Of a stretch of DNA of 64,000 bases, positions 1 through 53,822 are shown one piece after another. The stretch lies in assembly GCA_965243855.1 (NCBI GenBank), contig CBDEWE010000003.1, forward strand, positions 3,206,288-3,270,287, read 5' to 3'. This DNA comes from an uncultured Candidatus Binatia bacterium (lineage in GTDB: Bacteria > Desulfobacterota > Binatia > Bin18). How positions within the stretch are numbered: position 1 is the stretch's first letter; every line of letters begins with the position of its first letter. The notes beneath the pieces were generated by a model. It searched no databases, was not told the origin of the DNA, and saw only the letters and a list, made by a program, of their open reading frames with translations. Position numbers and translations under genes: made by a program.

Positions 1-1484
1 GCTTCGGCGGCTATATGCAGGACTGGAGCATCGCCTTTGGCCTGCGTGGAGAGTTGGAAAGCGAGTACGCGCTGCTGAACGGCTGGTTCTATGACGCCAG
101 CGCCAGCTTCGGCCAACATAGCGCGGACTTCTTCATGCACAACACCATTAACCCACAGCTCGCAGCCAGGCGCACGAATATTCCGACATCGTACCGACCC
201 GGCGGCTACCGCGAGTTCGACAAGGTGTTCAACTTCGATATCTCCCGGCCATTTGACGTGGGCCTGTTCTACTCCCCGCTCAACATCGCCTTTGGGCTGG
301 AATACCGTGAAGAGGAGTTCGAGGTCAAATCTGGAGAGAAGAATTCCTGGCATGTTGACGATAATCTTGCCCGCCAGGGGTTCGGTATCGGCTCCAACGG
401 TTTTCCGGGCTTCAGGCCGGATATCGCCGGCACATTCAACCGGGGCAGTTATGCGGGCTATCTTGACCTGGAAGCTGAGGTGCTCAAGGATGTGCTCCTC
501 GGTATAGCCGGGCGGTATGAGGATTTTGAACGGGTGGGCGACACGCTGAACGGCAAGGCATCGGTTCGCTGGCAAGCGCTGGACGCGGACCTGGTCCGGG
601 CAGCTCTGCGCGGTTCGGTCAGCTCCGGGTTCCGCGCCCCGACCGTGGGGCAAGCCAACGTCCGCAACGTCTCAACCTCGTTCGCCGGAGGTATGCTGTC
701 GGATCAGGCCACCCTGCCTCCGGACCATCCAATATCGGCCCTCAAGGGTGGCAAGAAGCTGGAGCCGGAAAAGTCCGTCAACTACTCCGTGGGCACAGTC
801 TTCAGCGTGGGTAAGCTTGACGTGACCGTCGACTATTTCCGGATCAAGGTGCAGGGGCGTATCCAACAGGGAAGCCCACAATCATTAACCGATTCTGATA
901 TAGCGGCGCTGTTGGCCCAGGGCGTTCAAGACGCAAGCAGTTACTCGTCCGTGGTGTTCTTCTCCAATGCCTTGGACACCACTACGCAAGGTGTCGACGT
1001 GGTGGCGAGCTACCCACTCCAGACCTTTGCCGGCCACACCCAGTTCACACTTGTGGGAAATTGGACCGACACCAAGATCGACAGCTTCGACTCTGACGTC
1101 ATCGTTAGCGGTGAACGGTTCATGCTTCGTAATAACCTGCCGGAGTTCCGTTTCACGCTGACCGCCGACCACACCTGGGGGCCGTGGCGGCTCCTGGTCC
1201 GGCAGCATTACTTCGACGGGTTTTGGGACGACCAGTTGAATACCAATCTTGCATTAGCCAGTAAATCCAGTGAACGCTGGCTCACGGACGCGGAACTCTC
1301 GTACACGTTTATGAACCTGCCGTTCATGCAGGCGGCGACGGTCGCGTTTGGCGCGGAAAATCTGTTCGATCAGTATCCGGCTAGAAGTCCGTATGCACGG
1401 GTAGTCGGCTATAAATACCCGCCCTCCTCGCCGTACGGTTTCAACGGCGGCTTCTACTATCTGCGAGCCAGGTTTGAGTTCTAA
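1..1484 (+). CDS. TonB-dependent receptor, C-terminal part (5' end cut by window edge); paralog of the next three genes
   Basis: ORF 15..1484 continues open to base 1; aligns with C-terminal ~490 aa of the downstream 858-866 aa paralogs; ends ...YYLRARFEF with terminal Phe typical of TBDR beta-barrels. Confidence 0.8.
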   Translation, partial: FGGYMQDWSIAFGLRGELESEYALLNGWFYDASASFGQHSADFFMHNTINPQLAARRTNIPTSYRPGGYREFDKVFNFDISRPFDVGLFYSPLNIAFGLEYREEEFEVKSGEKNSWHVDDNLARQGFGIGSNGFPGFRPDIAGTFNRGSYAGYLDLEAEVLKDVLLGIAGRYEDFERVGDTLNGKASVRWQALDADLVRAALRGSVSSGFRAPTVGQANVRNVSTSFAGGMLSDQATLPPDHPISALKGGKKLEPEKSVNYSVGTVFSVGKLDVTVDYFRIKVQGRIQQGSPQSLTDSDIAALLAQGVQDASSYSSVVFFSNALDTTTQGVDVVASYPLQTFAGHTQFTLVGNWTDTKIDSFDSDVIVSGERFMLRNNLPEFRFTLTADHTWGPWRLLVRQHYFDGFWDDQLNTNLALASKSSERWLTDAELSYTFMNLPFMQAATVAFGAENLFDQYPARSPYARVVGYKYPPSSPYGFNGGFYYLRARFEF

Positions 1485-1512
1485 GCACAGTTTGACAAAC
1501 ATGGCTACAAAA

Positions 1513-1549
1513 AGAGGGATGGGTTCATACCCGTCTCTCTTTTCCTTTT
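1513..1549 (+). terminator. rho-independent terminator-like hairpin after TBDR1
   Basis: AGAGGGATGGGT-tcat-ACCCGTCTCTCT stem followed by TTTTCCTTTT. Confidence 0.45.
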
Positions 1550-1615
1550 GTCTGATTTCTATCGTCCCCTCAAAACGGTAATGGTGTTGTAGCGAGAATC
1601 CGTTATCAAAAAGAG

Positions 1616-4192
1616 ATGAAGAAATCGAGAACGTGGACATACGGCCTGCTGATCGCTCTGCTCCTTAGCCTGGGAGTCGCGCCGGTCGGAGCCCAGGACG
1701 CGGAACCCCCATTGGAGGCACGGCAAGAACAGGAGGGAATTGTCGAACTGGAAGGCGTCAGGGTGCTGGGCTCCCGTCATGCAGCGCGTTCAGCCCGGGA
1801 CTCGCTGGTGCCGGTAGACGTGATCCAGAGAGAAGACTTGCAGACCTACGGCATCCGGGACATGGACACGCTGCTGTCGGCCACTGTGCCGTCCTACAAC
1901 GTCAACCGGCGTGCCGGCGATGCCGCCGCACTGGTTCGTCCGGCCAATATGCGTGGCCTGCCGCCCGACTCCACCCTGGTGCTGGTCAACGGCAAACGCC
2001 GGCATCGCGCCGCGGTGATTACCTTCCTGGGCAACGGCATTTCGGACGGCGCGCAGGGGGCTGATATTTCGGTGATTCCGGCCATTGCGCTCAAGCGGCT
2101 GGAAGTGTTGCGCGACGGTGCTTCGTCCCAGTACGGCTCCGACGCCATTGCCGGAGCGTTGAATTTCGTGCTGCGCGACGACCCCGAGGGGGCCATGCTG
2201 GAAACGCGCTGGGGTCAGAACTACCAGGGCGACGGCGACAAGGTAAGTGTTGCCGGCAACCTCGGCCTACCGTTGACCGCGGCCGGCTTTGCCAACTTCA
2301 GCTTCGAGTTCATGAACGTCGACGAGACCAGCCGCAGTGTGCAGCGCAGCGATGCGCTGGAGCTGATTGCCGCCGGCAACGACCACGTTCGTCAGCCGGC
2401 GCAATTTTTCGGCACACCCGCCGTGCAGTATAATTACAAATTCTTTGGCAACCTGGGCCTGGACCTGACCGACAGGCATAGCCTGTATGCGTTTGGCAAC
2501 TATGCCGAACGTAAGGCCGAAGGCCACTTCTTTTTCCGCAATCCCAATACCCGGAGCGGGGTGTTCCGGGGCGACCCGCTTGAAGACGGTACGCCGACGA
2601 TCCGGGTGGCCGACCTGTCCGACAATCTCAAAGGCTGTCCGGTAGTACCAGCCAATCCGGCCGCAGACTATACCAATGTGAATCTGCCGGCCCACTGCTT
2701 TATTTTCAACGAACGCTTTCCGGGCGGTTTTGCGCCGCGGTTCGGTGGCTCTATGCAGGACTGGAGCGTCACCTTCGGCCTGCGCGGGGAACTGTCCGAC
2801 ATGCTGGACGGCTGGCACTACGACATGAGCGCCAGCTTCGGTCGAAACAGCATTGATTTCTTCATGCATAACACCATCAACCCCCAACTCGCCCATATGC
2901 AGACCGCCATTCCGACCTCGTACAAACCCGGCAGCTATAGCGAGTTCGACAAAGTGTTCAATTTCGACATCTCCAGGCCGTTCGACCTGGGCCTCTTTTA
3001 TTCCGCGTTAAACCTCGCCTTTGGGCTGGAGTACCGCGAAGAAGAATTTTCAGCAAACGCAGGTGAGCCGAACTCCTGGAAAATCGAAGAAAGCCTCGCC
3101 CGCCAGGGTTTTGGTATCGGCTCCAACGGCTTTCCCGGCCTCAGCCCCACGCATGCCGGTACGTTCAATCGGGGCAGTTATGCCGGCTATCTGGACCTGG
3201 AAGCCGAGGTGATCAAAAACCTGACCATCGGCCTCGCCGGACGGTATGAGGCGTATGAAGGCATAGCGGATACCCTGGACGGCAAGGTCTCCGCCCGCTG
3301 GCAATTCCTGGCCGATATGGCCGTACGCGGCTCGGTCGGTTCCGGCTTTCGCGCCCCGACTGTGGGCCAAGCGAACGTTCGCAATGTGACAACATCGCTC
3401 ATAAACGGCAGGCTGGCGGACGAAGCCACCCTCTCTCCCACCGACCCGATTGCGCGCCAGAAGGGCGGCAAGGAGTTGGAGCCGGAAAAATCGGTCAACT
3501 ATTCCGTCGGCACGGTCTTCAGCCTGGGTAAGCTGGATGTCACCCTCGACTATTACCGCATCAAGATGCAGGATCGCATCGGGCTGACGAAGACGCTGAC
3601 CCTAACCGGGTCGGATATAGCGTCACTCCTGGCCCAAGGAGTCGTGGACGCGAGCAGTTTTACCGGGGTACGGTATTTTACCAACGACTTTGATACCACC
3701 ACACAAGGTGTCGATCTCGTGGCGACCTACCCGCTGGAGACGTTCGCCGGCAGTACGCTATTCACCTTTGTGGGCAACTGGAACAACACCAAGGTTGACA
3801 GCCGCAATCCAGCCATCATCGACGATGGGCGAGTACGGCAGCTTGAAGACAATCTGCCGGAGTTTCGTTTCTCACTCACGAGTGACCACACCTACGGGCC
3901 GTGGCGGCTCCTGACCCGGCTGCATTTCTACGATAGTTTTTATGCGGCCTATCTAAGAGACTTGCCCATAGAGGCGGGTGAACGCTGGCTCATGGACGCG
4001 GAACTCTCGTACACGTTTATGAACCTGCCGTTCATGGGAGTGCTGACCCTCGCGTTCGGCGCCGAGAACCTATTCGATCAGTACCCGGCCAGAAATCCGT
4101 ATGCACGTCTCGCCGGCGCCAAATACCCAGCCTCGTCACCCTACGGCTTCAACGGCGGCTTCTACTACCTACGGGCTGGCTTCGAGTTTTAA
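1616..4192 (+). CDS. TonB-dependent receptor (858 aa)
   Basis: Signal peptide; TonB-box-like LEGVRVLGSR; plug motif RLEVLRDGASSQYGSDAIAGALNF; C-terminal ...YYLRAGFEF; RBS upstream. Confidence 0.85.
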   Translation: MKKSRTWTYGLLIALLLSLGVAPVGAQDAEPPLEARQEQEGIVELEGVRVLGSRHAARSARDSLVPVDVIQREDLQTYGIRDMDTLLSATVPSYNVNRRAGDAAALVRPANMRGLPPDSTLVLVNGKRRHRAAVITFLGNGISDGAQGADISVIPAIALKRLEVLRDGASSQYGSDAIAGALNFVLRDDPEGAMLETRWGQNYQGDGDKVSVAGNLGLPLTAAGFANFSFEFMNVDETSRSVQRSDALELIAAGNDHVRQPAQFFGTPAVQYNYKFFGNLGLDLTDRHSLYAFGNYAERKAEGHFFFRNPNTRSGVFRGDPLEDGTPTIRVADLSDNLKGCPVVPANPAADYTNVNLPAHCFIFNERFPGGFAPRFGGSMQDWSVTFGLRGELSDMLDGWHYDMSASFGRNSIDFFMHNTINPQLAHMQTAIPTSYKPGSYSEFDKVFNFDISRPFDLGLFYSALNLAFGLEYREEEFSANAGEPNSWKIEESLARQGFGIGSNGFPGLSPTHAGTFNRGSYAGYLDLEAEVIKNLTIGLAGRYEAYEGIADTLDGKVSARWQFLADMAVRGSVGSGFRAPTVGQANVRNVTTSLINGRLADEATLSPTDPIARQKGGKELEPEKSVNYSVGTVFSLGKLDVTLDYYRIKMQDRIGLTKTLTLTGSDIASLLAQGVVDASSFTGVRYFTNDFDTTTQGVDLVATYPLETFAGSTLFTFVGNWNNTKVDSRNPAIIDDGRVRQLEDNLPEFRFSLTSDHTYGPWRLLTRLHFYDSFYAAYLRDLPIEAGERWLMDAELSYTFMNLPFMGVLTLAFGAENLFDQYPARNPYARLAGAKYPASSPYGFNGGFYYLRAGFEF

Positions 4193-4280
4193 GCGGAGGA
4201 GCAGGTATTTTTCTGGCAAAAGAAACAGGAGTCTGTCAGGGCAGATGGATTGATTCAAACGCACTGGAGGGAGAGAGAAA

Positions 4281-6881
4281 ATGAAGACCAAACGATGGCA
4301 ATGTGGGGTGGTAGTGGGACTTTTGGTCGTAACGGGTGCGCTGACAGTCTCGGCCCAAGAGACGAGCCAGCCAGAGCCGGCCGCCACCCAAGACACCGAA
4401 CAACAGGAGTCTGTCGTGGGGCTTGAGTCCCTCAAGGTGATCGGCTCCCGCGTGGCGGGCCGCTCGGCCCAGGACTCCGTAGTGCCAGTGGACATTATTC
4501 AAGGCGAAGACTTACAGACCTACGGCATCCGGGACATGGACTCGCTGCTGTCCGCCAGCGTGCCGTCCTATAACGTCAACCAGCAGCCCATCAGCGACGC
4601 CGCTACCCTGATTCGCCCAGCCAACCTGCGCGGATTACCGCCCGACTCCACCCTGGTGCTGGTCAACGGCAAACGCCGCCACCGCGCCTCGGTCATCCCC
4701 GAATTTGGAGGCATTTCGAACGGGTCGCATGGGGCCGATATCTCCGCTATCCCCACCATTGCGTTGGATCGGGTGGAAGTCCTGCGCGACGGCGCCGCCG
4801 CCCAGTACGGCTCGGATGCCATCGCGGGGATTCTGAACTTCCGGCTGCGTGAAGACCGGGAGGGCCTGACCGTGCAGACCAGCTACGGCCAGAACTATCA
4901 CGGTGACGGCGACAGGGTGAATGTGGCTGCCAACCTTGGACTGCCATTAACCGACAACGGCTTTGCCAACTTCAGCTTTGAATTCACCAACGCGGACGAG
5001 ACCAGCCGGAGTGCGCAGCGCGCCGATGCCCGGGGCTTGATTGAAGCCGGTAACGAGCATGTACGCCGGCCGGCGACCCAGATTTGGGGAGCGCCGGAGG
5101 TGCAGTACGACTATAAGTTTTTCGGCAACCTGGGGTTAGACCTGGAGGAGATCAACAGCCGTGCATATGCGTTTGGCAACTACGCGGAGCGTCGGGTGGA
5201 GGGCGGCTTCTTCTTTCGTAATCCCAACACCCGCGGCGGAATCTTCGATGGTGGCGAGAATCTCTTGGTCGCCGACCTGTCAGACGACCGTCGTGGCTGT
5301 CCTCCAATTGCGAAGAACCCCACGGCCGATTATGTCGCGGCATTGGCGGGCTTGCCCGACCACTGCTTCGCCTTTAACGAGCGGTTTCCGGGCGGGTTTA
5401 CGCCGCGTTACGGTGGAGTCGTCGAGGACTGGAGCATCACCTTTGGCCTGCGCGGGGAGGTTGAGAGCGCGTCGGCACTGCTCAATGGCTGGTTCTATGA
5501 TGCCAGCGCCAGCTTCGGTCACAACAGCGTGGACTTCTTCATGCATAACACCATCAACCCCCAACTCGCGGCCATGCGCACGAATATCCCGACCTCGTAC
5601 AAACCCGGCGGTTACCGGGAGTTTGACAAAGTGTTTAACCTGGACATCTCTCGGCCGTTCGATGTGGGGCTGTTCCATTCGGCATTGAATTTCGCCTTCG
5701 GGCTGGAGTACCGCGAGGAAGAGTTCGAGATTAAATCCGGCGGAGAAAATTCCTGGTATGTTGACAACAGCCCCGGCGGCCTAGCGGCTCAGGGCTTCGG
5801 CATCGGCTCCAACGGGTTTCAAGGCTTCGGGCCGGATATCGCCGGTACGTTCAATCGGGGCAGTTATGCCGGTTATCTAGACCTGGAAGCCGAGGTGATC
5901 AAAAACGTGACCCTCGGCGTCGCCGGGCGGTATGAGGCGTATGAAGGGATAGCGGATACCCTGGACGGCAAGGTCTCCGCCCGCTGGCAGTTGGTGGAAG
6001 CTCTTGCCGTGCGCGGTTCGATCAGCTCGGGCTTTCGCGCCCCGACCGTAGGACAGACCAACTACCGCAAGACCTCGACCTCATTAGAGGGAAACCGGCT
6101 GGTGGACAACGCGATCCTGCCGCCGGACCATCCGGCGGCAGTCCTGAAAGGCGGCAAGCAACTGGAGCCGGAAAAGTCGATCAATTATTCCGTGGGTACG
6201 GTCTTCAGCCTGGGCGACCTCGACGTGACCGTCGACTACTACCGCATCAAGGTGCAGGGCCGCCTCGCCTTGACGAGCAATCTCAAGCTGACGCAGGCGG
6301 ATATCGACACATTACTGGCCCAGGGTATTTCAGACGCGCGCAGCTTCGCGGGGGTGAACTTCTTCACCAATGATTTCGACACCACCACCCAAGGCGTCGA
6401 TGTCGTGGCAACCTATCCGCTCCACACTTTCGCCGGTCAGACCCTACTGACCTTCGTGGGCAACTGGACCGACACCCAGGTGGATAGCTTTAACCCGGAT
6501 ATCATCAATTCCAGGCGACGGCGACAGTATGAAGACGCCCTGCCGGAGTTTCGCTTCTCCCTCACGGCTGACCACACCTGGGGGCCGTGGCGATTTCTGA
6601 CCCGACTGCATTACTACGACGGCTTTTTCGAGGATATCGTTGAGGCTGGCTTGACCTCCATAAACGGGGAGCGCTGGCTCACCGATATGGAACTCTCCTA
6701 CACCTTCAGGAACCTGCCGTTCATGCAGATGGCGACCTTTGCCCTCGGCGCGGAAAACCTGTTCGACCAGTATCCGCGCAGGAGTCGCTGGGCACCTGTG
6801 CTCGGTAATAAATATCCACCCAACTCACCCTACGGCTTCAACGGCGGCTTCTACTATCTCCGAGCCAGCTTTGAGTTCTAG
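4281..6881 (+). CDS. TonB-dependent receptor (866 aa), paralog
   Basis: Same architecture (signal peptide, LESLKVIGSR, plug motif RVEVLRDGAAAQYGSDAIAGILNF, terminal Phe); RBS GGAGGGAG. Confidence 0.85.
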   Translation: MKTKRWQCGVVVGLLVVTGALTVSAQETSQPEPAATQDTEQQESVVGLESLKVIGSRVAGRSAQDSVVPVDIIQGEDLQTYGIRDMDSLLSASVPSYNVNQQPISDAATLIRPANLRGLPPDSTLVLVNGKRRHRASVIPEFGGISNGSHGADISAIPTIALDRVEVLRDGAAAQYGSDAIAGILNFRLREDREGLTVQTSYGQNYHGDGDRVNVAANLGLPLTDNGFANFSFEFTNADETSRSAQRADARGLIEAGNEHVRRPATQIWGAPEVQYDYKFFGNLGLDLEEINSRAYAFGNYAERRVEGGFFFRNPNTRGGIFDGGENLLVADLSDDRRGCPPIAKNPTADYVAALAGLPDHCFAFNERFPGGFTPRYGGVVEDWSITFGLRGEVESASALLNGWFYDASASFGHNSVDFFMHNTINPQLAAMRTNIPTSYKPGGYREFDKVFNLDISRPFDVGLFHSALNFAFGLEYREEEFEIKSGGENSWYVDNSPGGLAAQGFGIGSNGFQGFGPDIAGTFNRGSYAGYLDLEAEVIKNVTLGVAGRYEAYEGIADTLDGKVSARWQLVEALAVRGSISSGFRAPTVGQTNYRKTSTSLEGNRLVDNAILPPDHPAAVLKGGKQLEPEKSINYSVGTVFSLGDLDVTVDYYRIKVQGRLALTSNLKLTQADIDTLLAQGISDARSFAGVNFFTNDFDTTTQGVDVVATYPLHTFAGQTLLTFVGNWTDTQVDSFNPDIINSRRRRQYEDALPEFRFSLTADHTWGPWRFLTRLHYYDGFFEDIVEAGLTSINGERWLTDMELSYTFRNLPFMQMATFALGAENLFDQYPRRSRWAPVLGNKYPPNSPYGFNGGFYYLRASFEF

Positions 6882-6892
6882 CGGAGAAAAGG

Positions 6893-9469
6893 ATGAAAAC
6901 CATACGGTGGCCCTGCTGGGGAACAGCGGCGCTCTTCATCCTGCTGGGAGCAGTGACGGCCAGACCGCAGGAAGTGGAATCGCCCGCGGAGGTCGTCGGG
7001 CTTGACACCTTGCAGGTTGTGGGGTCGCGTCTGGACAGGCGTTCGGCCCAAGACTCGCCAGTGCCGGTGGACATCATTCAGGGGGAGGACTTACAGACCT
7101 ATGGCATCCGGGACATGGACGCCCTGCTGTCCGCCACCGTCCCGTCCTATAACGTCAACCAGCATCCCATCGGCGGGGACGCCACCTTTGTACGACCGGC
7201 TAATCTGCGCGGAATGCCGCCCGACTCCACACTGGTGCTCATCAACGGCAAACGCCGCCACCGCTCTGCCGTTATTGCCTTCTCCGCGGACGGCAGCAAT
7301 CGCGGGACGCAGGGCGCCGACCTGTCTGTCATCCCGGCCATCGCACTGGAGCGGGTCGAAGTCCTGCGCGATGGGGCCGCGGCCCAGTACGGCTCGGACG
7401 CCATCGCCGGTATCCTGAACTTCAAGCTGAAGGAGGCGTCCGATGGCCTGTCGCTCCACACCAGTTGGGGCCAGACCTACCACGGTGACGGCGACAAGGT
7501 GAATGTCGCCGCCAACCTGGGTCTGCCGCTGACCGACAACGGTTTTGCCAACTTCAGCTTCGAGTTTCTGAACGCCGACGAAACCAGCCGCAGTATACAG
7601 CGCGACGACGCGCGGGGGCTGATCGAAGCCGGCAATATGCATGTGCGCCGACCCGCGGCCCAGATCTGGGGGGCGCCCGAAATCCAGTTCGACTACAAGT
7701 TCTTCGGCAACCTCGGCCTGGACCTGGAGGCGCTCGACGCCCAGCTGTACGCCTTTGGCAACTACGCCGAGCGTAAGGTGGAGGGCGGCTTCTTTTTCCG
7801 TAACCCCAACACGCGCGGCGGGATATTCAGGGGCGACCCGCTCGGAGACGGCACGCCCACCGTCCGGGTGGCCGACCTGTCCGGCACTGGCCTCGGCTGT
7901 CCCGCCGTGCCTGCCAACCCGGCGGCCGACTACACCGGCGTGAATCTGCCCGAGCACTGCTTCCTCTTCAACGAGCGCTTTCCCGGCGGTTTCACACCTC
8001 GTTTTGGCGGCTACCTCCAGGACTGGAGCATCGCCTTTGGCCTGCGCGGGGAATTGGAAGGCGCATACGGCTTGCTGAACGGTTGGTCATACGACGCCAG
8101 CGCCAGCTTCGGCTACAACAGTATTGATTTCTTCATCCACAACACCATCAACCCGCAGCTGGCCGCCATGCGCACCGCTATTCCCACGAAATACCGACCC
8201 GGTGGAAACGCGCAGTTTGAGCGGACGTTCAACCTGGATATTGCCAGACCCCTGGATATCGGCCTCTTCCACTCTCCACTGAACGTGGCCTTCGGATTTG
8301 AGTATCACATGGAGGAGTTCGAACAGAAAGTTGGGGAAGCGCAGTCCTGGTTCATCGATGAAAACCTGAGAAATCAGGGTTTTACCATTGGCTCCAACGG
8401 GTTTTCGGGCTACCCGCCGCAGTCGGCCGGCGTGTTCGAACGCAACAACTATGCGCTGTATCTGGACCTGGAAGCTGAAGTCATACAGTCCCTCAGCCTC
8501 GGCCTGGCCGGGCGATATGAAAACTTCGACAGTGCCATAGGAGAGTCGCTGAACGGCAAGGGGTCGGTCCGCTGGCAACTGCTGGACGCTCTGGCCCTGC
8601 GCGGTTCGGTCGGTTCGGGCTTCCGCGCCCCAACACCGGGACAGGCGAACATCCGGAAAATCAACTCGCAGTTTACCACCGCAGGCCTAGTCGACCAAGG
8701 CATTTTCCCCTCGCATCACCCGGTCTCGGCCTTCTTCGGAGGCAGGCCGCTGGAGTCGGAAAAATCGGTCAACTATTCCGTCGGCAGCGTGTTCAACTCG
8801 GGTGACTTCAGTCTGACCGTCGACTATTATCGGATCAAAATTCAGGATCGCATCGGACTGACGCAGGATTTCAGAGTCCCGGACGAGCAGCGGGCGGCCT
8901 TCAACCGCCTCGCTCCCGACGCGAGTACCCTCACCTCGGTGCGCTACTTCACCAATGCATTTGACACGACCGCGCAAGGGGTCGATATCGTGGCGACCTA
9001 TCCGCTGGCAACGCGGGTCGGTGACACCATGTTGACCTTTGCCGGCAACTGGAACCGGCTGAGGCTCGACCGCTTCGACCCGCACGTCATCAATACCAAG
9101 CAGGTGCATCAGATAGAGGATGGCTTGCCGCAATTCCGGTTTTCGCTGACCGCGGATCACACCTACGGGCCGTGGCGCTTTCTGACCCGCGTGTATTTCT
9201 ACGACGAATTTTTTGAAGCCCACGCCAACACCGAAACGCGTTTCCTGACCGCCGGGGAGCGGTGGCTGATGGATGTCGAAGCCTCGTACACCCTGCTGAC
9301 GCTGCCCTTCACCCAGGCAGTGATTCTTGCAGTAGGCGCGGAAAACGTGTTCGACACCTACCCGCGCAGAAATCCGTACGCGCGCGATACGGGCGCGAAA
9401 TACCCGGAATCCTCACCCTACGGCTTTGGCGGCGGCTTCTACTACGTACGGGCTGGCTTTGAGTTTTAA
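6893..9469 (+). CDS. TonB-dependent receptor (858 aa), paralog
   Basis: Same architecture (LDTLQVVGSR, plug motif, ...YYVRAGFEF end); stop overlaps stop of convergent gene. Confidence 0.85.
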   Translation: MKTIRWPCWGTAALFILLGAVTARPQEVESPAEVVGLDTLQVVGSRLDRRSAQDSPVPVDIIQGEDLQTYGIRDMDALLSATVPSYNVNQHPIGGDATFVRPANLRGMPPDSTLVLINGKRRHRSAVIAFSADGSNRGTQGADLSVIPAIALERVEVLRDGAAAQYGSDAIAGILNFKLKEASDGLSLHTSWGQTYHGDGDKVNVAANLGLPLTDNGFANFSFEFLNADETSRSIQRDDARGLIEAGNMHVRRPAAQIWGAPEIQFDYKFFGNLGLDLEALDAQLYAFGNYAERKVEGGFFFRNPNTRGGIFRGDPLGDGTPTVRVADLSGTGLGCPAVPANPAADYTGVNLPEHCFLFNERFPGGFTPRFGGYLQDWSIAFGLRGELEGAYGLLNGWSYDASASFGYNSIDFFIHNTINPQLAAMRTAIPTKYRPGGNAQFERTFNLDIARPLDIGLFHSPLNVAFGFEYHMEEFEQKVGEAQSWFIDENLRNQGFTIGSNGFSGYPPQSAGVFERNNYALYLDLEAEVIQSLSLGLAGRYENFDSAIGESLNGKGSVRWQLLDALALRGSVGSGFRAPTPGQANIRKINSQFTTAGLVDQGIFPSHHPVSAFFGGRPLESEKSVNYSVGSVFNSGDFSLTVDYYRIKIQDRIGLTQDFRVPDEQRAAFNRLAPDASTLTSVRYFTNAFDTTAQGVDIVATYPLATRVGDTMLTFAGNWNRLRLDRFDPHVINTKQVHQIEDGLPQFRFSLTADHTYGPWRFLTRVYFYDEFFEAHANTETRFLTAGERWLMDVEASYTLLTLPFTQAVILAVGAENVFDTYPRRNPYARDTGAKYPESSPYGFGGGFYYVRAGFEF

Positions 9470-10512: not shown

Positions 10513-10535
10513 ACCTGGATTTCTCTAGGGAGCAA

Positions 10536-10587
10536 AAGAGTAAACGTGTCAACAGCTTTGTATCTATTGAAAGACACGTTTACTCTT
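10536..10587. repeat. palindromic element copy 1 (15-bp arms AAGAGTAAACGTGTC / GACACGTTTACTCTT, 22-bp spacer)
   Basis: Perfect inverted repeat 24 bp upstream of start of the 9466..10512 gene; same element recurs at 29109..29162 and 31398..31451. Confidence 0.8.
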
Positions 10588-10657
10588 TGCGGACGGGGGA
10601 AGGGCGGTACGGGCTGCAAGCAGTCGCTCTCTTGTCCGGGTGCGTGTCTTGGGTCTG

Positions 10658-11557
10658 TTACTCAGGGACTCCGGACGGAAGGCCGGCCATCTCTCGGATA
10701 ACAGTTGCCAGCGCGCCCCAGTCGAGGTCGCCCCGTCCTCTGGCAAAGGCGGCCCGCAAATGGTTGTCAGCCAAGTCGGCCAGCGGCAGGGGCGCGGCAA
10801 CATCTTTGGCCAGCTTTTGCATCAGCCCGACATCTTTCAGTCCCAGCGCCAGCGCAAAGCCCGCAGGAACAAACTCCTGCTTGGCGATCCGGCTGCCATA
10901 GCCTTGAAACAGAGGCACGGGCAGCAATGCTCGGATCAACTCCAGAACGGTCTCGTTTTGCAACCCACCCTTCTCGGCCAAGGTCAGCGCCTCGCTAATG
11001 GTTTCGATGCCGGCAATCACAAAAAAGTTCCCCACCAGCTTGAGGACATTGGCGAGGTGAGGCTCTTCACCCACCACGATAACCCCCTGCCCCATGGCCT
11101 CGAACGCGGGTCGGCAACGGTCGATGGCCGCAGCTGGGCCAGCCGGACAGATCCACAGTTTTGCCGCGGCCGCGGCCTCCGGACGGCCAAAGACCGGCGA
11201 GGCCACAAAATGCGTCCCCCGGTCGTGATACAGCGGTGCCAGTTCTTTGGTTACGTCGGGTGAGACGGTGCTCATATCAACGTGAATCCCATCCGGTTTG
11301 AGGCCGGCCAGAATGCCGTCCTCACCCAGCGTAATCGCCCGGAGCGCGGCATCGTCAGCAATAATGCTGATCACAACATCGGATCGCGCGGCCAACTCGC
11401 GGGGGGAATCGGCCCACTGCGCTCCGTTTTGGCGCAAGGTGTCGGCCCGTGAGGCCGTGCGATTAAAAAGCGCGAGGGGAAAATCGGCATCGAGCAGATG
11501 CTGTGCCATGGGCAGGCCCATCCTGCCCAGTCCGATAAAGCCAATTGAAGGGGTCAT
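10658..11557 (-). CDS. NAD(P)-dependent oxidoreductase, 3-hydroxyisobutyrate dehydrogenase / 2-hydroxy-3-oxopropionate reductase family
   Basis: IGFIGLGRMGLPMAQHLL Rossmann motif at N-terminus; ~300 aa; start chosen at internal ATG with RBS AAAGGA (ORF extends to 11629). Confidence 0.8.
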   Translation of the reverse strand: MTPSIGFIGLGRMGLPMAQHLLDADFPLALFNRTASRADTLRQNGAQWADSPRELAARSDVVISIIADDAALRAITLGEDGILAGLKPDGIHVDMSTVSPDVTKELAPLYHDRGTHFVASPVFGRPEAAAAAKLWICPAGPAAAIDRCRPAFEAMGQGVIVVGEEPHLANVLKLVGNFFVIAGIETISEALTLAEKGGLQNETVLELIRALLPVPLFQGYGSRIAKQEFVPAGFALALGLKDVGLMQKLAKDVAAPLPLADLADNHLRAAFARGRGDLDWGALATVIREMAGLPSGVPE

Positions 11558-12544: not shown

Positions 12545-12678
12545 GCCCCGAGAGTAGCGTATGAACGGATGGACGGCTAGGGTTGGGGCCTTGAGCTATT
12601 TAGGACCCAACAGTGGCGTGTGATACACATTCCCAGGAGCCTGCGCTCGCCAGACGTGCGGTGGCCGCCGGGACGGGG

Positions 12679-12749
12679 CAACCCACCCCGCCGCTACGCG
12701 GCACCCCTCCCGAGAGGGGAGCTTATCTTATCTCCCTTGGAGAGGGGAG
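12679..12749. repeat. REP-like GC-rich hairpin cluster (CCCCTCC-cgaga-GGGGAG; TCTCCC-ttgg-AGAGGGGA)
   Basis: Shares ACCCACCCCG...CCCCTCCGAGAGGGGAGCTT..TTATC..CCCTTGGGAGGG core with element at 24732..24815. Confidence 0.6.
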
Positions 12750-18184: not shown

Positions 18185-19620
18185 ATGCTCCGCCTCTTCC
18201 AGTCTCTTATTATCCTGCAACTGGCTCTCCTCTTCGCTCTGCCCGTAGGAAGCTTTGCACAAACCCCACCTGGGGAGCGCTCCGCCATGAGCGATCTCCA
18301 GATGAGCCAAGAAGATATTGCCAACGAGCGCGTCTCGCCCTATACGTTGCGCCGCAAGGGTGGCCTGATCTTCTCAACCCCGTTTACCAAGCTTGATGGG
18401 TTCGGGCACGCACCCTTTAGCGCGCACGAGCCTGATTTTCTTGAAACACGTCCCACTCTTCAGGGAAACGGGGCTTTTTTACGCGTCAACGGGCTCGACG
18501 CTCAGACCTGCATGGAATGTCACTCGGTCCTGAGCAATGCGGTTGTGCCTTTCCGGTTTGGTGTCGGTGGGGTTGGATCAGGCAGTTCGAATGTGATGTT
18601 TAAGCCGACATGGATTGACCCAACGACCGGCGGCAAAGAAAATTTCAACGGTCGGTTCATTAACCCTCCCTTTTTATTCGGCTCGGGTGGAGTGGAGCTG
18701 TTGGGAAAAGAAATGACCCTGGATTTGCAGCAGCTCAGAGCGCAGGCGCAACAAAGCCCCGGAACACGGGTCTCCCTAGTTTCCAAAGGGGTCTCTTCGG
18801 CAGCATATCCTGCCAACAGGACGGCACGTGCGATACCTCACAGGTCGAAGGGGTGAATACCGATCTGGTGGTTCGCCCCTTTGGCCGCAAAGGTGAGTTC
18901 GCCACCGTCCGTGCATTCGATGTGGAAGCAATGGAGTTCCACTTTGGCATGGAGCCCGTGGAACTGGTTGGGGACGGGGTGGACAGGGATGGCGATGGCG
19001 TGATCAACGAGGTCACTATCGGCCAGATATCCGCCTTACATATTTTTAATACGACCCTCACGCCGCCGATTATGCACCTCAGCCGTGAAGCCCAAGACGG
19101 ACAGGAGCTGTTTGCACACATCGGCTGTGCGGACTGTCATATCCCGTCCCTGACAACCAACAGTCCGATGCTGACCTATAGTTTTCCCGAAGTGCCGACA
19201 GACCCGACCGCCAACGTCTTCTACCGGGTCGATCTGAGAGACTATCCCACGTTTTTTGAGGAGGCGGCGCAGGGGGGCCTCGTGGTCCCGCTGTTCGCCG
19301 ACCTCAAACGGCATGACATGGGGTCGGCGCTGGCCGAATCATTCGGAGAAGAACTGGCCGCCCAGTTCACCACCGCCCGGCTGTGGGGCGTGGCCGATAC
19401 CGCCCCCTACCTCCACGACGGACGAGCGCTGACCCTCACCGAGGCGATTACGCTCCACGGCGGGGAGGCGCAAGCGGCCCGCGATGCGTTTGTCGATACG
19501 CTGGACACTCAGGAAAAGGAGACCCTCTTAACCTTTCTCCGCTCGCTCAGGACCCCTCACGCAGACGACGTGGCCCCTGATCTTCGGTCGGAGAGTAACG
19601 GAAGAGACTGGGAACATTAG
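18185..19620 (+). pseudogene. di-haem cytochrome c peroxidase-like protein (two CxxCH), interrupted by a frameshift near 18750-18765
   Basis: ORF1 18185..18856 (signal peptide, CMECH) and ORF2 18853..19620 (GCADCH) are in different frames; ORF2 frame reads through from 18664; shift maps near a CCCC run at 18757-18760. Confidence 0.55.
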
Positions 19621-19711
19621 AGCAAAGAACGATGCGGTGTAGCGCGGCTCTCTCTTCCCCTTTAGGAGTGCGGGCTGGAAGCCCGCAGGCGACCATCCTG
19701 GCCGCCCTCCC
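19621..19711 (+). repeat. ~90-nt 3'-UTR repeat element, copy A (hairpins GCGGGC-tggaa-GCCCGC, GGCGACCA..TGGCCGCC)
   Basis: About 90% identical to reverse complement of 22381..22469; starts immediately after stop of the cytochrome gene. Confidence 0.75.
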
Positions 19712-22380: not shown

Positions 22381-22469
22381 GGGAGGGCGGCCATACTGGC
22401 CGCCATGCGGGCTTCCAGCCCGCACTCCTAAAGGAGGAGAGAGGCGCGCTACACAGCAGCGTGATTTGC
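22381..22469 (-). repeat. ~90-nt 3'-UTR repeat element, copy B (inverted relative to copy A)
   Basis: Reverse complement aligns to 19621..19711; lies ~55 nt downstream of the CaiB-family gene stop in sense orientation. Confidence 0.75.
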
Positions 22470-23850: not shown

Positions 23851-24717
23851 ATGCAAAACAAGAAAACGTACGATCGCACCACGCAGGATGTCGGCAATAT
23901 CATTGGCATGGAACATGTGAATGTCACCGTGCCGGACCAGGCGGTTGCTTCGACCTTCTATATCTCCGGCCTCGGGTTCACCCGCGACCCGTATATGATG
24001 GTCGGGCCGGGCAATATGTGGGTGAACGTTGGCCAGCAACAGTTTCACCTCCCGGCGAGTGATCCCCAGGTGTTCAGAGGCCATATCGGGTTGGTGGTCC
24101 CGGACTTGAATACCTTGCAGACACGGCTTGAGCGGATCCAAAAACGCCTCGCCGATACGGCCTTTCGCTGGTCGGCCAAGAAAAGCTATGTCGCGGTCAC
24201 CTGTCCGTGGGGGAATCAGCTACGCTGTTACGCGCCAAGTCCGCAGTTCGGCAGCATGACGCTGGGCCTGCCCTATGTTGAGATGCCGGTCGCACCCCGC
24301 ACGGCTCGCGGGATTTGCCAATTCTATCAGGATGTGATGAACACCCCGGCGAGAGTCATCCAAGAGCGCGGCGCGGCGGTGGCCCAAGTCCAGGTCGGAC
24401 GTTCTCAGGTCTTACGTTTTCGGGAAACCTCGAAAACCATCCCCGCCTATGACGGCCATCATATAGCCGTCTATGTTACCAACTTTTCCGCTCCGCATAC
24501 GTTCCTGAAGCGTCACAAACTGATTACCCAGGAGAGCGACGATCATCAGTATCGCTTTCAGGCCATCGTCAACCCCAAAACCGGCAAGCTATTGTGCGAG
24601 CTTGAGCACGAGGTTCGCAGCCTGTTTCATCCCATGTACGAACGGGAATTAGTGAACCGCAACGCCGGCCAGAGCATTTTTGCCTATCAGAAAGGGCAGG
24701 ACGCGTTTGCCGCCTGA
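23851..24717 (+). CDS. VOC (glyoxalase/dioxygenase-fold) family protein, putative
   Basis: 288 aa; MEHVNVTVPDQAVASTFYISGLGF resembles VOC beta-alpha-beta-beta-beta start; second similar half. Confidence 0.45.
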   Translation: MQNKKTYDRTTQDVGNIIGMEHVNVTVPDQAVASTFYISGLGFTRDPYMMVGPGNMWVNVGQQQFHLPASDPQVFRGHIGLVVPDLNTLQTRLERIQKRLADTAFRWSAKKSYVAVTCPWGNQLRCYAPSPQFGSMTLGLPYVEMPVAPRTARGICQFYQDVMNTPARVIQERGAAVAQVQVGRSQVLRFRETSKTIPAYDGHHIAVYVTNFSAPHTFLKRHKLITQESDDHQYRFQAIVNPKTGKLLCELEHEVRSLFHPMYERELVNRNAGQSIFAYQKGQDAFAA

Positions 24718-24731
24718 GCGGCCTACAAGCG

Positions 24732-24815
24732 AAACCCACCCCGGCCACCCCTCCGAGGAGGGGAGCTTTTTTATCCCCTCTTGGGAGGGCTGCCGCGTAG
24801 CGGCGGGGTGGGTTT
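24732..24815. repeat. nested palindromic REP-like element with hairpin-plus-T-tract terminator
   Basis: Outer arms AAACCCACCCCG / CGGGGTGGGTTT; inner CCCCTCCgaggaGGGGAG + TTTTTTAT + CCCCTCttggGAGGG. Confidence 0.6.
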
Positions 24816-24851
24816 CCCAGCCCCTAACCCCCAATCCCTAACCCCCAACCC

Positions 24852-25847
24852 CTAATACCCCCCACGTTTGTCCACAACATTATCCATGGGCTCGCCGCGC
24901 AGATACTGACCCAGAATCGGTTGGAACAGCGCCACCGCGTGCTCCCAATAGTGAGAGCGAATACCGGAATAGTGCGGGGTGAGAATCACATTCGGCAGGT
25001 AAAATAACTCGCTGTCCGCCTCCGGTGGCTCGGGGTCGGTAACGTCCAACCCGGCACCGCCGAGACGGTCTTCTTTGAGGGCCTGGATTAAGGCCGCTTC
25101 CTGAATAATCGCCCCGCGTCCGACGTTCAGAATAAAAGCTCCCGGCTTCATCAAGCGCAGTTCGGGCTCTCCGATCAGACCCCGGGTTTCCGGCGTCAGC
25201 GGGGCGGCCACCACCACATAGTCCGACTGTGCCAAGAGCTGGGGCAGGCCGTTTGGCCCGAGCAATTCATCAACACAGGCCGGTTTGTCGCCACCCCGCC
25301 GCTTGTTGGCAACTACCCGCATGCCGAGCGCCTGACAGCGTTCGGCCACGGCCAGGCCGATACTGCCCAGCCCGATAATGCCGACGGTCCGACCGTGCAG
25401 CTCGGCAATCAGGGAAAACCGGCTGATCATTTCCTGGCGCGCCCACTTGCCTTCCCCCTGGAGGCGGTACGCCTCGTGCAGGCGGCGCGCAAACATGAGC
25501 ATCATGCCCAGCACGTGCTCGGCAATCGGAATGCCGTAGAGGCCGCGCGAGTTGGTGACAATGATGTCGCTCTCGACCAGCTCTGGAAATAAGACGTGCG
25601 TGGCTCCGGCCGAGGTGAGGTGGAGCCATTTGAGCTGGGTGGCGGTCGCCAGGTCCTTTTTGCTGAATCGGACAGCACACAGCACCTCGGTATCGGCCAG
25701 TTCGGCCAGCCGCCGGTCCGGGTCCTGGATCAGATTGATGTGGGCCTGCGGAAATGCGTCTTGCAGTTGCCGGACGAGCGCCAGGGGAAAATCCGGCCAG
25801 CCGGCCAGCCCGGCCGCACCGGCAAACGAAATACTCACCTTGGTCAT
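24852..25847 (-). CDS. D-isomer-specific 2-hydroxyacid dehydrogenase family protein
   Basis: NAD-binding GXGXXG motif VGIIGLGSIGLAVAERCQALGMRVV; start at ATG with RBS AAGAGGA (ORF open to 25970). Confidence 0.8.
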   Translation of the reverse strand: MTKVSISFAGAAGLAGWPDFPLALVRQLQDAFPQAHINLIQDPDRRLAELADTEVLCAVRFSKKDLATATQLKWLHLTSAGATHVLFPELVESDIIVTNSRGLYGIPIAEHVLGMMLMFARRLHEAYRLQGEGKWARQEMISRFSLIAELHGRTVGIIGLGSIGLAVAERCQALGMRVVANKRRGGDKPACVDELLGPNGLPQLLAQSDYVVVAAPLTPETRGLIGEPELRLMKPGAFILNVGRGAIIQEAALIQALKEDRLGGAGLDVTDPEPPEADSELFYLPNVILTPHYSGIRSHYWEHAVALFQPILGQYLRGEPMDNVVDKRGGY

Positions 25848-26529: not shown

Positions 26530-28932
26530 CTAATCCAGCACCTTCTCTTCTTTGAGCCGCGCAATCTCTTCCGGCGCATAGCCCAGCACGTCCCGCATGA
26601 TCTGGTCCGTATGCTGGCCGAGCAGTGGCGCGGGCGCGCGAACGCCGTTGGACGATTCGGCCAGTAACCAGGGGATACCCATATGCAGCCGGGGGCCGAC
26701 TTCCGGATGCGGCAGGCGCGCAAACGCTCCGCGCGCCTCCAACTGCTCGTCCTCCGCCAGGTCAGACGCACTCAGCGCCGGAAAGGCGGCCACACCCGCC
26801 TCCTGGAGCATCTGCGTGACTGCCCAGCGGTCGCGCTGGCTGGTCCACGCGGTCAGCAGTTTTTCCAGCTCGTCTTCGTTTGCTTTCCGGTCGGAAGCGG
26901 TATGAAAGCGCGAGTCACTCGCCAGTTGGGGCTCGCCCATAGCCTGACACAGGGCCTGCCATTCTTCGTCCGAGCCACACGCGATCGAGACCCAGGCGTC
27001 TTCTCCCGCGCAACGAAAACAGTTATGCGGAGCCATGACGGGGTCGTGGTTGCCGTCGCGCTCGGGCTGGGTGCCGTTCATGACGTAGTCCATCCAGCCC
27101 TCGGACACCAGGGCCGCCACCGCGTCAAACAGCGACACATCAATATACTGGCCCTGGCCAGTGCGTTTCCGGGCGACCAGTGCGGCACAGACTGCCGCGG
27201 CAGCGTGAATGCCGCTGTTCGGGTCGCCGTACGAAATCCCGACCTCTTGTGGCGAGCCGCCCTGATAGCCGCTCAGGGAAGATAAACCGCTGACCGGAGC
27301 CATGGCCGGGCCATAGCCCATGTACTTTTTCCGCGGGCCGGAATGGCCGAAGCCCGAGATCGAAGCCACAATGATATCCGGCTTGATCTGCTTGAGCTCA
27401 TCGTAGCTGAGCCCCAGATTGTCCATCACGCCGGTCGCAAAATTATCCACCACTACATCGCTCTGCCTGATGAGCTCTTTGATAATCTCCATCCCCTTTG
27501 GTTTGGCGACGTTGAGGAGCAGACTCTTCTTGCCCATGCTCCACTCGTTAAAAATACCGGAGCGATTCACCCCGGCTTCCATACCCTTCGGGTAGATCGG
27601 CAGCCGACGGGTAATATCCACCCGGGCGTTGGATTCGATCTTAATCACCTCGGCCCCCAGGTGGGCCAGATGCATGGTGCCAAACGGCCCGGCCCAGACC
27701 CAGGTAAAATCCGTCACCCGCACGCCTGCCAGGGGCAGACGGGAGTCGGGGGTTGGGGATTGGGGGTTGGAGGGACGTGACGGGCTTGGCAGTTCGGCGA
27801 AGACTTCGGCAGTATGCTCTCCCAGTTGTGGGGCGGGACGGCGAACCTGCCACCACGGCTCGCGCAGTCGGTAGGGTGCACCGAGCTGGGTCAGCTTGCC
27901 CGCTTTGGGATGTTCCACATCCACGAAAAACCCGCGCGCGCGGAGATGCTCGTCTTCGGCGAGCTGGGCCATGGTCTGCACCGGAGCAAAACAGATCCTC
28001 CGCTCCTGGCCCATCCGAAACAGCTCGTGCACCTTCTGCTGCTGGAACCACTCATCCAGATACATTTTGAGCACGTCCTGGTTCTTGGCCCGGTCTATCC
28101 CCCCTTGAAAAATCTCCCAGCTCCCCCACTCGGGATTCCCCATGAGGTCAACCAAGCGTTCCCACTGGTCCTCTTCCGCAACGACTAGAAAGATCAGGCC
28201 GTCCTGACACTCATAAATACCCCAGGGGTACAACAGCCGTTTGCCCAGGCGCGAGGCGACCCGCTCGCTATACGTGTAATGGACGAAGCTCTGTTCCATG
28301 AAAGAGGACACATAGGCTTGAGTGCTAAGATCAATATGTTCTCCACGCCCGGTCTCCAGCGCCCGATAATAGGCACCAAGCGTTGCGACCGTGGCGGCCA
28401 GCCCGCCTTGGAATCCCGTCTGCTGGCCATACGCCTTGAGGGGCGGCAGGTCCGGATAGTCCGACGCCCCAGGGCTCAACCAGGCCCAGCCGCCGGCATT
28501 GGCGACGGTGATGTCGTACGCCTTGTAGTCTTTATATGGCCCAGTCAGACCAAACGGCGTAATCGAACACATCACCAGCCGTGGGTTGAGTGCCCGAAAG
28601 GCCGGATAATCGATACCCAGTTCCGCCATCCGTGGTGGCGCATAATCATGGACCAGGATATCGGCCCACTGCACGAGTTGAGCGAGGCGGTCTTGCTCCT
28701 GCGCCACGTCAAGCGTGACACTGCGCTTATTGGTATTGAGGGATAAGAAGAGGCCGCTCTGCTCGGGGTCTGCTTTACCACCAGGAAAAGGCCCGCGCCA
28801 ACGGGACTGGTCGCCGCCCGGTTCTTCGGCTTTGACGACATTCGCGCCAAGGTCAGCCATGAGTTTTGTGGCGTAGGCTGCCGAAGCAAGATGGCCGAGT
28901 TCCAGCACTTTGACATCTTCGAGACCCTGCAT
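26530..28932 (-). CDS. tandem-fused CoA transferase family III protein (two CaiB/BaiF domains, 800 aa)
   Basis: Domain 1 MQGLEDVKVLELGHLASAAYATKLMADLGANVVK...; Pro/Ser linker; domain 2 LAGVRVTDFTWVWAGPFGTMHLAHLGAEVIKIES... Confidence 0.8.
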   Translation of the reverse strand: MQGLEDVKVLELGHLASAAYATKLMADLGANVVKAEEPGGDQSRWRGPFPGGKADPEQSGLFLSLNTNKRSVTLDVAQEQDRLAQLVQWADILVHDYAPPRMAELGIDYPAFRALNPRLVMCSITPFGLTGPYKDYKAYDITVANAGGWAWLSPGASDYPDLPPLKAYGQQTGFQGGLAATVATLGAYYRALETGRGEHIDLSTQAYVSSFMEQSFVHYTYSERVASRLGKRLLYPWGIYECQDGLIFLVVAEEDQWERLVDLMGNPEWGSWEIFQGGIDRAKNQDVLKMYLDEWFQQQKVHELFRMGQERRICFAPVQTMAQLAEDEHLRARGFFVDVEHPKAGKLTQLGAPYRLREPWWQVRRPAPQLGEHTAEVFAELPSPSRPSNPQSPTPDSRLPLAGVRVTDFTWVWAGPFGTMHLAHLGAEVIKIESNARVDITRRLPIYPKGMEAGVNRSGIFNEWSMGKKSLLLNVAKPKGMEIIKELIRQSDVVVDNFATGVMDNLGLSYDELKQIKPDIIVASISGFGHSGPRKKYMGYGPAMAPVSGLSSLSGYQGGSPQEVGISYGDPNSGIHAAAAVCAALVARKRTGQGQYIDVSLFDAVAALVSEGWMDYVMNGTQPERDGNHDPVMAPHNCFRCAGEDAWVSIACGSDEEWQALCQAMGEPQLASDSRFHTASDRKANEDELEKLLTAWTSQRDRWAVTQMLQEAGVAAFPALSASDLAEDEQLEARGAFARLPHPEVGPRLHMGIPWLLAESSNGVRAPAPLLGQHTDQIMRDVLGYAPEEIARLKEEKVLD

Positions 28933-29108: not shown

Positions 29109-29162
29109 AGAGAGTAAACATGTTCTGCACCGATTCCAAGCTGTTGTACACGTTTACTCTTT
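29109..29162. repeat. palindromic element copy 2 (AGAGTAAACATGT ... ACACGTTTACTCT, one mismatch, 24-bp spacer)
   Basis: In divergent promoter region between fused CoA-transferase gene and SnoaL-like gene. Confidence 0.7.
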
Positions 29163-31375: not shown

Positions 31376-31397
31376 TGGCGTTCCCTCCCTGCTCAAT

Positions 31398-31451
31398 AAA
31401 GAGTAAACGTGTCGACATCTGCATGTCTATTGGAGGACACGTTTACTCTTT
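31398..31451. repeat. palindromic element copy 3 (AAAGAGTAAACGTGTC / GACACGTTTACTCTTT, 22-bp spacer)
   Basis: Divergent promoter region between amidohydrolase and dienelactone hydrolase genes; spacer GACATCTGCATGTCTATTGGAG ~64% identical to copy 1 spacer. Confidence 0.8.
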
Positions 31452-31602
31452 TCACAACGCGTTGCCTTGCCTCCTACCACCTTCTCCAGAGGGGTACAAG
31501 CTTTGTCCGCCTGTGCCGGTATGCTCATACGACTTGAAACCGAGCGGGGCAAGACATATGCTCCCGGTAACAATTTTCCTATCTCCAAAGGAGGAACGAC
31601 GC

Positions 31603-53592: not shown

Positions 53593-53822
53593 TCACCGTG
53601 GGCAATGGAAAGTACAGTATTTTCAGGAGGATCACGCGCGTCACGCCAGAGCGGAGCCGATCACTGGCCCGTCTGGGAATCATCGACATCTGCCCAAACT
53701 TCCAGTACAGTGCGCTCTAAGACTCGGACAGGTGATGCAAAAAGTAACCCACCCCGGCAGTCCTCGCATATCTGGCGAGCGCGAGTTCCTGGGAATGTGC
53801 ATCACACGTAAATGAGGTGTGT

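Follow-up and report, generated by a model that had tools for sequence, protein, structure and literature searches.

REPs are stem-loops of 20-40 bp that carry either GTAG or CGTC at one end (Di Nocera et al. 2013, PMC3733652). The definitions of REPs, RPEs, MITEs and RAYTs used throughout this work were taken from the same source. There, REPs are short, interspersed and hairpin-forming palindromes that are abundant and lineage-specific and differ from strain to strain; they do not duplicate the target, are found chiefly in intergenic regions and occasionally within genes and are recognised by their structure (PMC3733652). RPEs are palindromes that end in CGTC and occur in frame in genes whose products are probably still functional (PMC3733652). 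MITEs such as the Correia elements of Neisseria are non-coding, 70-300 bp in size, resemble deleted insertion sequences and have terminal inverted repeats of 15-30 bp; they lie near gene starts and are co-transcribed (PMC3733652). Here, we describe a palindrome of Candidatus Binatia that shares traits with all of these families. RPEs are about 100-150 bp long, and MITEs make target-site duplications. For chloroplasts, Kelchner and Wendel reportedly described in 1996 a hairpin-loop 'flip-flop' between perfect inverted repeats that does not need a dedicated recombinase.

The stretch of DNA that was analysed (64,000 nucleotides, hereafter the window) contains three palindromic units, all at the places given by an earlier sequence-only reading. 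The full unit comprises 54 nt in each case, with the ends AAAGAG...CTCTTT:

10535 to 10588, minus strand: copy 1, complete; arms 10535-10550 and 10573-10588, complementary at 16 of 16 positions; loop 10551-10572
29109 to 29162, plus strand: copy 2, degenerate; arms 29109-29124 and 29147-29162, complementary at 13 of 16 positions; loop 29125-29146, diverged from the consensus
31398 to 31451, minus strand: copy 3, complete; arms 31398-31413 and 31436-31451, complementary at 16 of 16 positions; loop 31414-31435

We consider it probable (roughly 80%) that all three belong to a family of non-autonomous mobile hairpins of 54 bp. When up to three mismatches are allowed, the arm 15-mer GACACGTTTACTCTT occurs six times in the window, always as part of one of the three inverted pairs. 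By comparison, shuffled windows contain 0.81 occurrences on average, and none of 100 shuffles reached six. Neither the arm search nor a profile search detected lone arms or further copies in the window.

Copy 1 is located between two genes on the minus strand, and the region is not divergent. It follows the stop codon of the upstream gene (10658-11557), which encodes a dehydrogenase and ends at 10658, by 69 nt, and on its other side the ATG of the LPG-synthase-like gene at 10512 is 22 nt away, where about 25 nt between arm and start codon had been given before. Read on the minus strand, its loop CTTTCAATAGATACAAAGCTGTT is a variant of the family consensus CCTCCAATAGACATGAGATGCTGG. The predicted RNA fold has a free energy of -24.8 kcal/mol for the plus and -27.4 kcal/mol for the minus strand (z -4.7 and -7.5, respectively), and an orthologue is present in OZ219926.1 (L041; L-numbers L001-L166 denote retrieved genome blocks and metagenome loci). 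Copy 3 lies in a divergent region between an Amidohydro_2 gene (ATG at 31375) and a DLH gene. Its minus-strand loop CTCCAATAGACATGCAGATGTC is near the family consensus, and its fold reaches -24.8 and -28.3 kcal/mol (z -5.3 and -5.6). The loops of copies 1 and 3 are identical at 14 of 22 bases, including TCTATTG, as read from the sequence; the earlier statement that the whole hairpin and not the arms alone is conserved is correct.

Copy 2 is found in the divergent region between a fused CoA-transferase gene (start at 28932) and a DUF4440/SnoaL gene (start at 29212). It had been credited with a single arm mismatch; compared to the consensus, three mismatches are present in the left and one in the right arm, and its arms therefore pair at 13 of 16 positions. 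The hairpin is weaker than those of the other copies (-20.2 and -18.5 kcal/mol, z about -2.2 to -2.5). The same sequence in the same orientation is present in L007, L076 and three metagenome contigs that were found via the SnoaL gene. The flanking genes of all three copies agree with the earlier assignments, as Pfam matches identified LPG_synthase_TM, a fusion of two CoA_transf_3 domains, two DUF4440/SnoaL proteins, Amidohydro_2 and DLH. The fused CoA-transferase (26530-28932) is a single open reading frame of 800 amino acids and contains two family III CoA-transferase domains, both of them complete. Enzymes of this family are very common at loci with the element, and in-frame copies occur in them repeatedly.

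To define the family, one genome per species was scanned with the pattern AGTAAACRTGT-N15-35-ACAYGTTTACT. The scan returned at least 113 blocks, 111 of which belong to Candidatus Binatia and derive from at least 22 assemblies; the two remaining blocks are chance matches. One assembly among the 111 blocks is labelled Thermodesulfobacteriota, yet it is 95.6% identical to the window. A single chromosome, OZ244620.1, contributes at least 17 blocks. Among the matched genomes, none is identical to the window, and the nearest relatives show 92-96% identity. A profile built from the exact copies detected 167 copies in 888 kb plus the window, about 50 of which are more degenerate than the pattern. Moreover, a metagenome scan yielded 59 additional copies in 36 Binatia-like loci. 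The density amounts to one copy per 12-17 kb, with the copy that selected the block excluded, and to one per 21 kb in the window. By extrapolation from blocks that were chosen for holding a copy, a genome of 4-5 Mb probably carries, very roughly, 200-350 copies. According to the sequence-only reading, many scattered copies lacking a link to promoters would speak for a generic repeat and against a regulon operator, and this pattern was found among the matches listed, with at least 226 copies in the approximately 1.2 Mb of Binatia DNA sampled.

The consensus unit consists of a 17-bp perfect terminal inverted repeat (AAAGAGTAAACGTGTCC / GGACACGTTTACTCTTT) and a loop of about 20 nt. The loop consensus TCCAATAGACATGAGATGCT is asymmetric and most conserved beside the stem; counted from inside the 15-nt arm core, it reads CCTCCAATAGACATGAGATGCTGG or the reverse complement thereof. 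Judging from these searches, the family appears so far to be restricted to Candidatus Binatia. A scan of viral contigs gave two AT-rich chance matches only, and a phage origin was rejected on these grounds. In the literature, the arm sequence was encountered only in unrelated guide-RNA papers. None of the 15 best matches of a literature search on repetitive and palindromic sequences in Binatia or Binatota dealt with Binatia, and a description of this repeat was not found. The pattern also matched a 2.8-kb metagenome contig with 49% GC (L125, Ga0137411_1322499) at ten positions between 1868 and 2488 on both strands (20 matches). This dense array does not match the Binatia profile and is an unrelated tandem repeat.

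The presence or absence of the element at orthologous sites is evidence for mobility. About 23 comparisons of filled and empty sites could be made among the retrieved loci. In about six of them, the difference is exactly the 54 nt from AAAGAG to CTCTTT, and no target bases are duplicated (for instance L012/L037, L008/L025, L102/L073, L087/L038 and L034/L032). A few comparisons differ by 67-72 nt, and one locus retains a half-deleted remnant. Copy 3 of the window is itself polymorphic. It is present in L007 and L019 and absent at the orthologous site of L076, where 1 nt replaces the 68 nt that span the copy (window 31391-31458) between flanks of 92-95% identity. A locus-specific pattern search for copy 3 in metagenomes gave no match. 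Conversely, the window provides the empty allele of a site that is filled in a relative:

19389 to 19390, no strand: empty target site; L026 (OZ244620.1) has a 55-nt copy at 4261-4315, exactly between these bases

In the alignment of L026 with the window, GGGG[C AAAGAG...CTCTT]CGTGG, a duplication comprises 1 nt at most. At this site, the window shows the uninterrupted coding DNA of a di-haem oxidoreductase (DHOR domain match on 18853-19620), and the gene of L026 is disrupted by the copy. The DHOR gene of the window appears to be split into the overlapping reading frames 18185-18856 and 18853-19620, of which the second alone matches the C-terminal part of the Pfam model; the split may be due to a frameshift, a pseudogene or an assembly error.

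At 107 unique sites, target duplications of 2-6 nt occur at chance frequency. No conserved target motif was found in the flanks of the element, just a weak one-sided nnnGC. Two pairs of near-identical loop variants stand 450-830 nt apart in L030 and L098, and such neighbours at a distance of less than 1 kb suggest that the element may be copied over a short range. Among the unique copies in L001-L166, about 72% show a GC at a distance of 4-5 nt on one side but not on the other. Flank position -6 is A in none of 103 copies (1 of 107 in a second set) and position +6 is T in none of 103 (3 of 107), and positions -3 and +3 are similarly depleted (103-107 copies).

The element can also be accommodated by coding sequences. 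Gene positions were obtained with a codon-usage gene caller made for this analysis, which assigned 95 of the 167 copies to spacers between tandem genes, 30 to divergent and 9 to convergent regions; another 26 fall within called genes. Several of the intragenic copies are start-codon artefacts, and at least six are genuine. The element corresponds to 18 codons and is open in three of six frames. Indeed, a single continuous Pfam match spans the 18-residue insertion in CoA_transf_3 (twice), GIDA (MnmG/GidA) and VWA_2, and a further in-frame copy is located in the linker of a MoxR-type ATPase, between bpMoxR and AAA_lid_8. Relatives carry empty alleles of these in-frame insertions. Between tandem genes, the element often makes up the entire spacer; in many of these pairs a TAA within the arm serves as the stop codon of the upstream gene, and the next gene often starts 0-30 nt past the other arm. 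Altogether, 64 of 159 adjacent gene starts lie within 30 nt of a copy.

These data bear on the proposal that the element is a shared operator in promoter regions, with the arms as half-sites of a dimeric or tetrameric transcription factor that co-regulates a regulon. All three copies of the window are located 5' of genes, the arms are strongly conserved, and at least one gene start adjoins 93% of the intergenic copies, compared to 75% under a simple null, and only 9 of the 134 intergenic copies are found in convergent regions. However, the genes that would form the regulon are incoherent. The 84 proteins whose genes begin no more than 80 nt away from a copy fall into 77 Pfam families that have no theme in common, among them enoyl-CoA hydratase, CobW, thiolase, EPSP synthase, ribosomal protein L20, signal peptidase and TatA. 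An operator would also not be expected to come and go at orthologous sites, to stand in housekeeping operons and in frame inside enzymes or to disrupt a gene as in L026, and compensatory changes in the arms are not predicted by a protein half-site model. The arm centres are about 37 bp apart, that is about 3.5 helical turns, and they are therefore on opposite faces of the helix. Moreover, no regulator gene was seen around the three window copies (Pfam) or between neighbouring copies (translations). The insertion behaviour, the entry into genes and the lack of a regulon taken together, the shared operator reading fails, and we give it hardly any credence. The operators BirA bioO, parS, CIRCE and the sigma-54 -24/-12 element were also considered, and their spacings or bases do not fit. 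The option that the sequence-only reading had listed third, a miniature mobile palindromic element, is the one favoured by the filled and empty sites and the insertions into coding sequence.

A mobile hairpin is also consistent with the way in which the stem has been maintained. Across 149 distinct copies, 96.2% of the stem cells form standard pairs, and 10 of the 17 stem pairs show changes on both sides. Double changes were counted in 38 stem cells, compared to 6.2 in shuffles and 7-26 in slid controls, and none of 500 shuffles reached 38. Examples of compensated arm variants are GAGGAAAC/GTTTCCTC, GAGTGAAC/GTTCACTC and CGTATCC/GGATACG. Part of the covariation signal stems from subfamilies that spread after gaining a compensated pair, and self-correction of the palindrome could contribute to the compensatory changes without selection on each copy. 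The bases outside the element behave in the opposite way. Complementary pairs at flank positions ±1 to ±4 were observed 15, 8, 17 and 20 times, compared to 28, 27, 30 and 37 expected. As these positions are 54 nt apart, the avoidance of pairing between them argues that the element folds in vivo, and the pattern would suit a hairpin or cruciform substrate with a foot that has to remain open.

Stem covariation would likewise be expected if the transcribed hairpin acted in cis as a stabiliser, a processing site, a weak terminator or a modulator of translation, and a function at the RNA level has been proposed for other palindromic repeats (PMC3733652). Copies 1 and 3 form stable hairpins (-25 to -28 kcal/mol, z about -5), and many copies are located within operons, 0-30 nt before a start codon. 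In addition, the loop orientation that brings CCTCC onto the sense strand is somewhat commoner relative to the local gene direction (101 vs. 66), and the CCUCC of the transcript could pair with a downstream Shine-Dalgarno sequence. However, the orientation flips between orthologues of which the neighbouring genes are unchanged, the same 54-bp element also occurs within coding regions, and the loop is too large to be accepted by the terminator scan. A known RNA family was rejected, as Rfam 15 gave no match at the gathering score in the whole window. We therefore regard an RNA function as improbable, and at best as a secondary role of some copies. A small reading frame starting in the loop was also rejected, because the distances to the downstream reading frames are out of frame.

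The flipping of the loop deserves attention on its own. In 13 of 75 orthologous pairs (17%), one loop is the exact reverse complement of the other. One of these pairs has 97.75% flank identity, and L061 and L062 differ in this way between identical flanks. These comparisons were made among species-level genomes and consensus assemblies. Orientation did not follow the replichores, as judged from chromosome coordinates and local GC skew on seven chromosomes. The flips appear to reflect an inverted-repeat-driven flip-flop and not a programmed switch. In chloroplasts, minute hairpin-loop inversions similarly turn a short loop exactly around among close relatives; those are single-copy non-coding hairpins of an organelle, whereas the Binatia element is a dispersed mobile family.

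A programmed switch would be at work if the element were an invertible promoter. According to this idea, the outward TACTCT in the arms is a -10 box, the loop provides in one direction a -35-like TAGACA 18 nt upstream, and flipping redirects transcription. Indeed, TAGACA-18-TACTCT can be read in the consensus, start codons follow 5-25 nt past the arm, some of them near enough for leaderless transcripts, and the loop orientation is mildly biased, with the adjacent gene start on the 'promoter' side in 59 vs. 35 cases. However, TACTCT agrees with TATAAT at only three of six positions, and TAGACA is missing from several loop subfamilies. Copies inside genes and in housekeeping operons do not fit a switch either, and copy 2 has the same orientation in all six sequences compared. 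A loop of 20 nt is far too short for the known kinds of recombinase-mediated inversion. A TTGACA hexamer had been assigned to the gene-proximal arms of copies 1 and 3; it is present at the arm junction of copy 1 only, and most copies elsewhere have CTGGACA. We consider an invertible promoter very improbable. Scans for consensus (sigma-70-like) promoters and for terminators identified no site in any window copy, and a promoter or terminator within the element was rejected on this basis. Individual copies may have a promoter or RNA role, for which neither the consensus scans nor Rfam provide support.

We thus return to the mobile hairpin family. The element is inserted as an exact unit without target-site duplication, and lands in the intergenic spacers of operons, in divergent regions and in coding sequence, where copies in frame persist; the insertion adds 18 codons, and three of six frames are open. 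Its stem is maintained by compensatory changes, the helix is kept out of the flanks, and the loop turns up exactly inverted in related genomes. In its folded form, either a single-stranded hairpin or a cruciform, the element would be recognised and moved by an enzyme whose gene lies elsewhere in the genome. As the insertion is flush and leaves no duplication, a DDE transposase is improbable, and the candidate enzyme would be neither a classic enzyme of this type nor evidently a RAYT. Since no target motif and no strand bias were found, an IS200/IS605-type mechanism receives no support, and neither does a lagging-strand insertion bias of this kind, given that the orientation has no replichore pattern on the seven chromosomes. 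Six-frame open reading frames from about 0.95 Mb of sequence (the window together with the 111 genome blocks) were searched for HUH/Y1-like proteins (HUH...Y..NP regular expression); none was found, only two irrelevant Y-only matches. According to their translations, the genes that separate adjacent copies in the genome blocks are ordinary and include those for RimM, a KH-domain protein, Jag, RadC, Nth and ComEA, and the RadC region of L135, the metagenome locus that was read, is ordinary as well. A full-length parent element was not seen in the sample, and the only lone arms belong to a remnant left by a deletion (L023, 7030) and to a copy truncated at the end of a block.

Loop flipping would be a by-product of the inverted repeat, arising through recombination or template switching, and most copies would be neutral or mildly harmful passengers. 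Nevertheless, individual copies may influence the genes that they abut by supplying a TAA stop codon or by placing a hairpin 0-30 nt before a start. The non-random placement near gene starts could reflect a function or a target preference and not selection alone. Likewise, the conserved loop ends and the mild orientation bias are not required by a purely selfish model. A bolder version of the mobile hairpin, which we hold to be unlikely, assumes an undescribed mechanism in which a 54-bp hairpin is recognised solely by its fold and inserted flush, without duplication and with hardly any preference for a target. The enzyme would then belong to neither the DDE transposases nor the RAYTs, and the flipping loop could in addition act as a minimal orientation switch for neighbouring genes.

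How does the family compare with the described repeats? Similar to REPs and REPINs, the Binatia element is a short interspersed palindrome that forms hairpins and is abundant and lineage-specific; it causes no target duplications, varies between strains, is mostly intergenic and occasionally intragenic and appears to be recognised by its structure. In contrast to REPs, it is 54 bp long, its ends AAAGAG/CTCTTT carry neither the GTAG nor the CGTC tag, its large loop has a conserved sequence, and it does not form BIME-like arrays. In the screen of the genome blocks, no RAYT gene was encountered in the neighbourhood of the 167 copies. The in-frame insertions that leave the domain structure intact are a trait of RPEs. 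However, the Binatia element does not end in CGTC, most of its copies are intergenic, and its hosts have genomes of about 4-5 Mb and come from environmental metagenomes, whereas RPEs inhabit the reduced genomes of obligate intracellular bacteria. With the Correia-type MITEs, it shares the non-coding nature, the terminal inverted repeats (17 bp and perfect in the consensus) and the location near gene starts, where co-transcription is expected. Yet it is smaller than any MITE size given in PMC3733652, has no target-site duplication, and an insertion sequence that shares its ends and could be its parent was not encountered in the sample. The family thus works like REPs or RPEs, and lacks the REP tag and the duplication typical of MITEs. 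Integron attC sites end in the inverse core RYYYAAC and the core GTTRRRY; the arms AGTAAAC and GTTTACT fit neither.

The main interest of the family lies in its unexplained mode of insertion and in the caution that it recommends for regulon prediction in Binatia. A motif upstream of many catabolic genes could pass as a regulon signal during annotation, and this false lead can now be removed. In addition, a well-defined repeat family has been added for a phylum that is known from metagenomes only. The repeats are natural strain markers, and their filled and empty alleles form natural pairs for studying how MnmG and family III CoA-transferases tolerate insertions of 18 residues. The flush insertion, together with the covariation of the stem and the scarcity of pairing between the flanks, points to a mobilisation mechanism that depends on structure.

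The window contains other repeats as well. Positions 3 to 9469 are occupied by four paralogous genes in tandem, each about 2.6-2.7 kb long and encoding about 840-860 amino acids; the first is cut by the window edge. One of them was scanned and has the Plug and beta-barrel domains of a TonB-dependent receptor. A second repeat family is GC-rich. Its 51-nt segment in the intergenic region at 12670-12720 is 90% complementary to a second intergenic site at 24774-24824, and a neighbouring segment of 61 nt (12617-12677) recurs at 53748-53808. The 51-nt segment contains CCGCCGCTACGCGGC, and since the reverse complement of this sequence holds GTAG, the genome may also carry classical GTAG-tagged REPs. 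Inverted repeats at 19650-19711 and 22381-22443, consisting of 38 nt (95%) and 24 nt (83%), flank a 2.7-kb segment that encodes an MFS transporter, a pterin-4a-carbinolamine dehydratase and a 184-amino-acid reading frame without a Pfam match; no transposase was seen in this segment. Finally, a C-rich, telomere-like run of low complexity, CCCCTAACCCCCAATCCCTAACCCCCAACCCC, is located at 24821-24852, 3' of both stop codons in the convergent gene pair formed by 23851-24717 and 24852-25847, and its 84% complementary partner lies at 27742-27773 inside the fused CoA-transferase gene.
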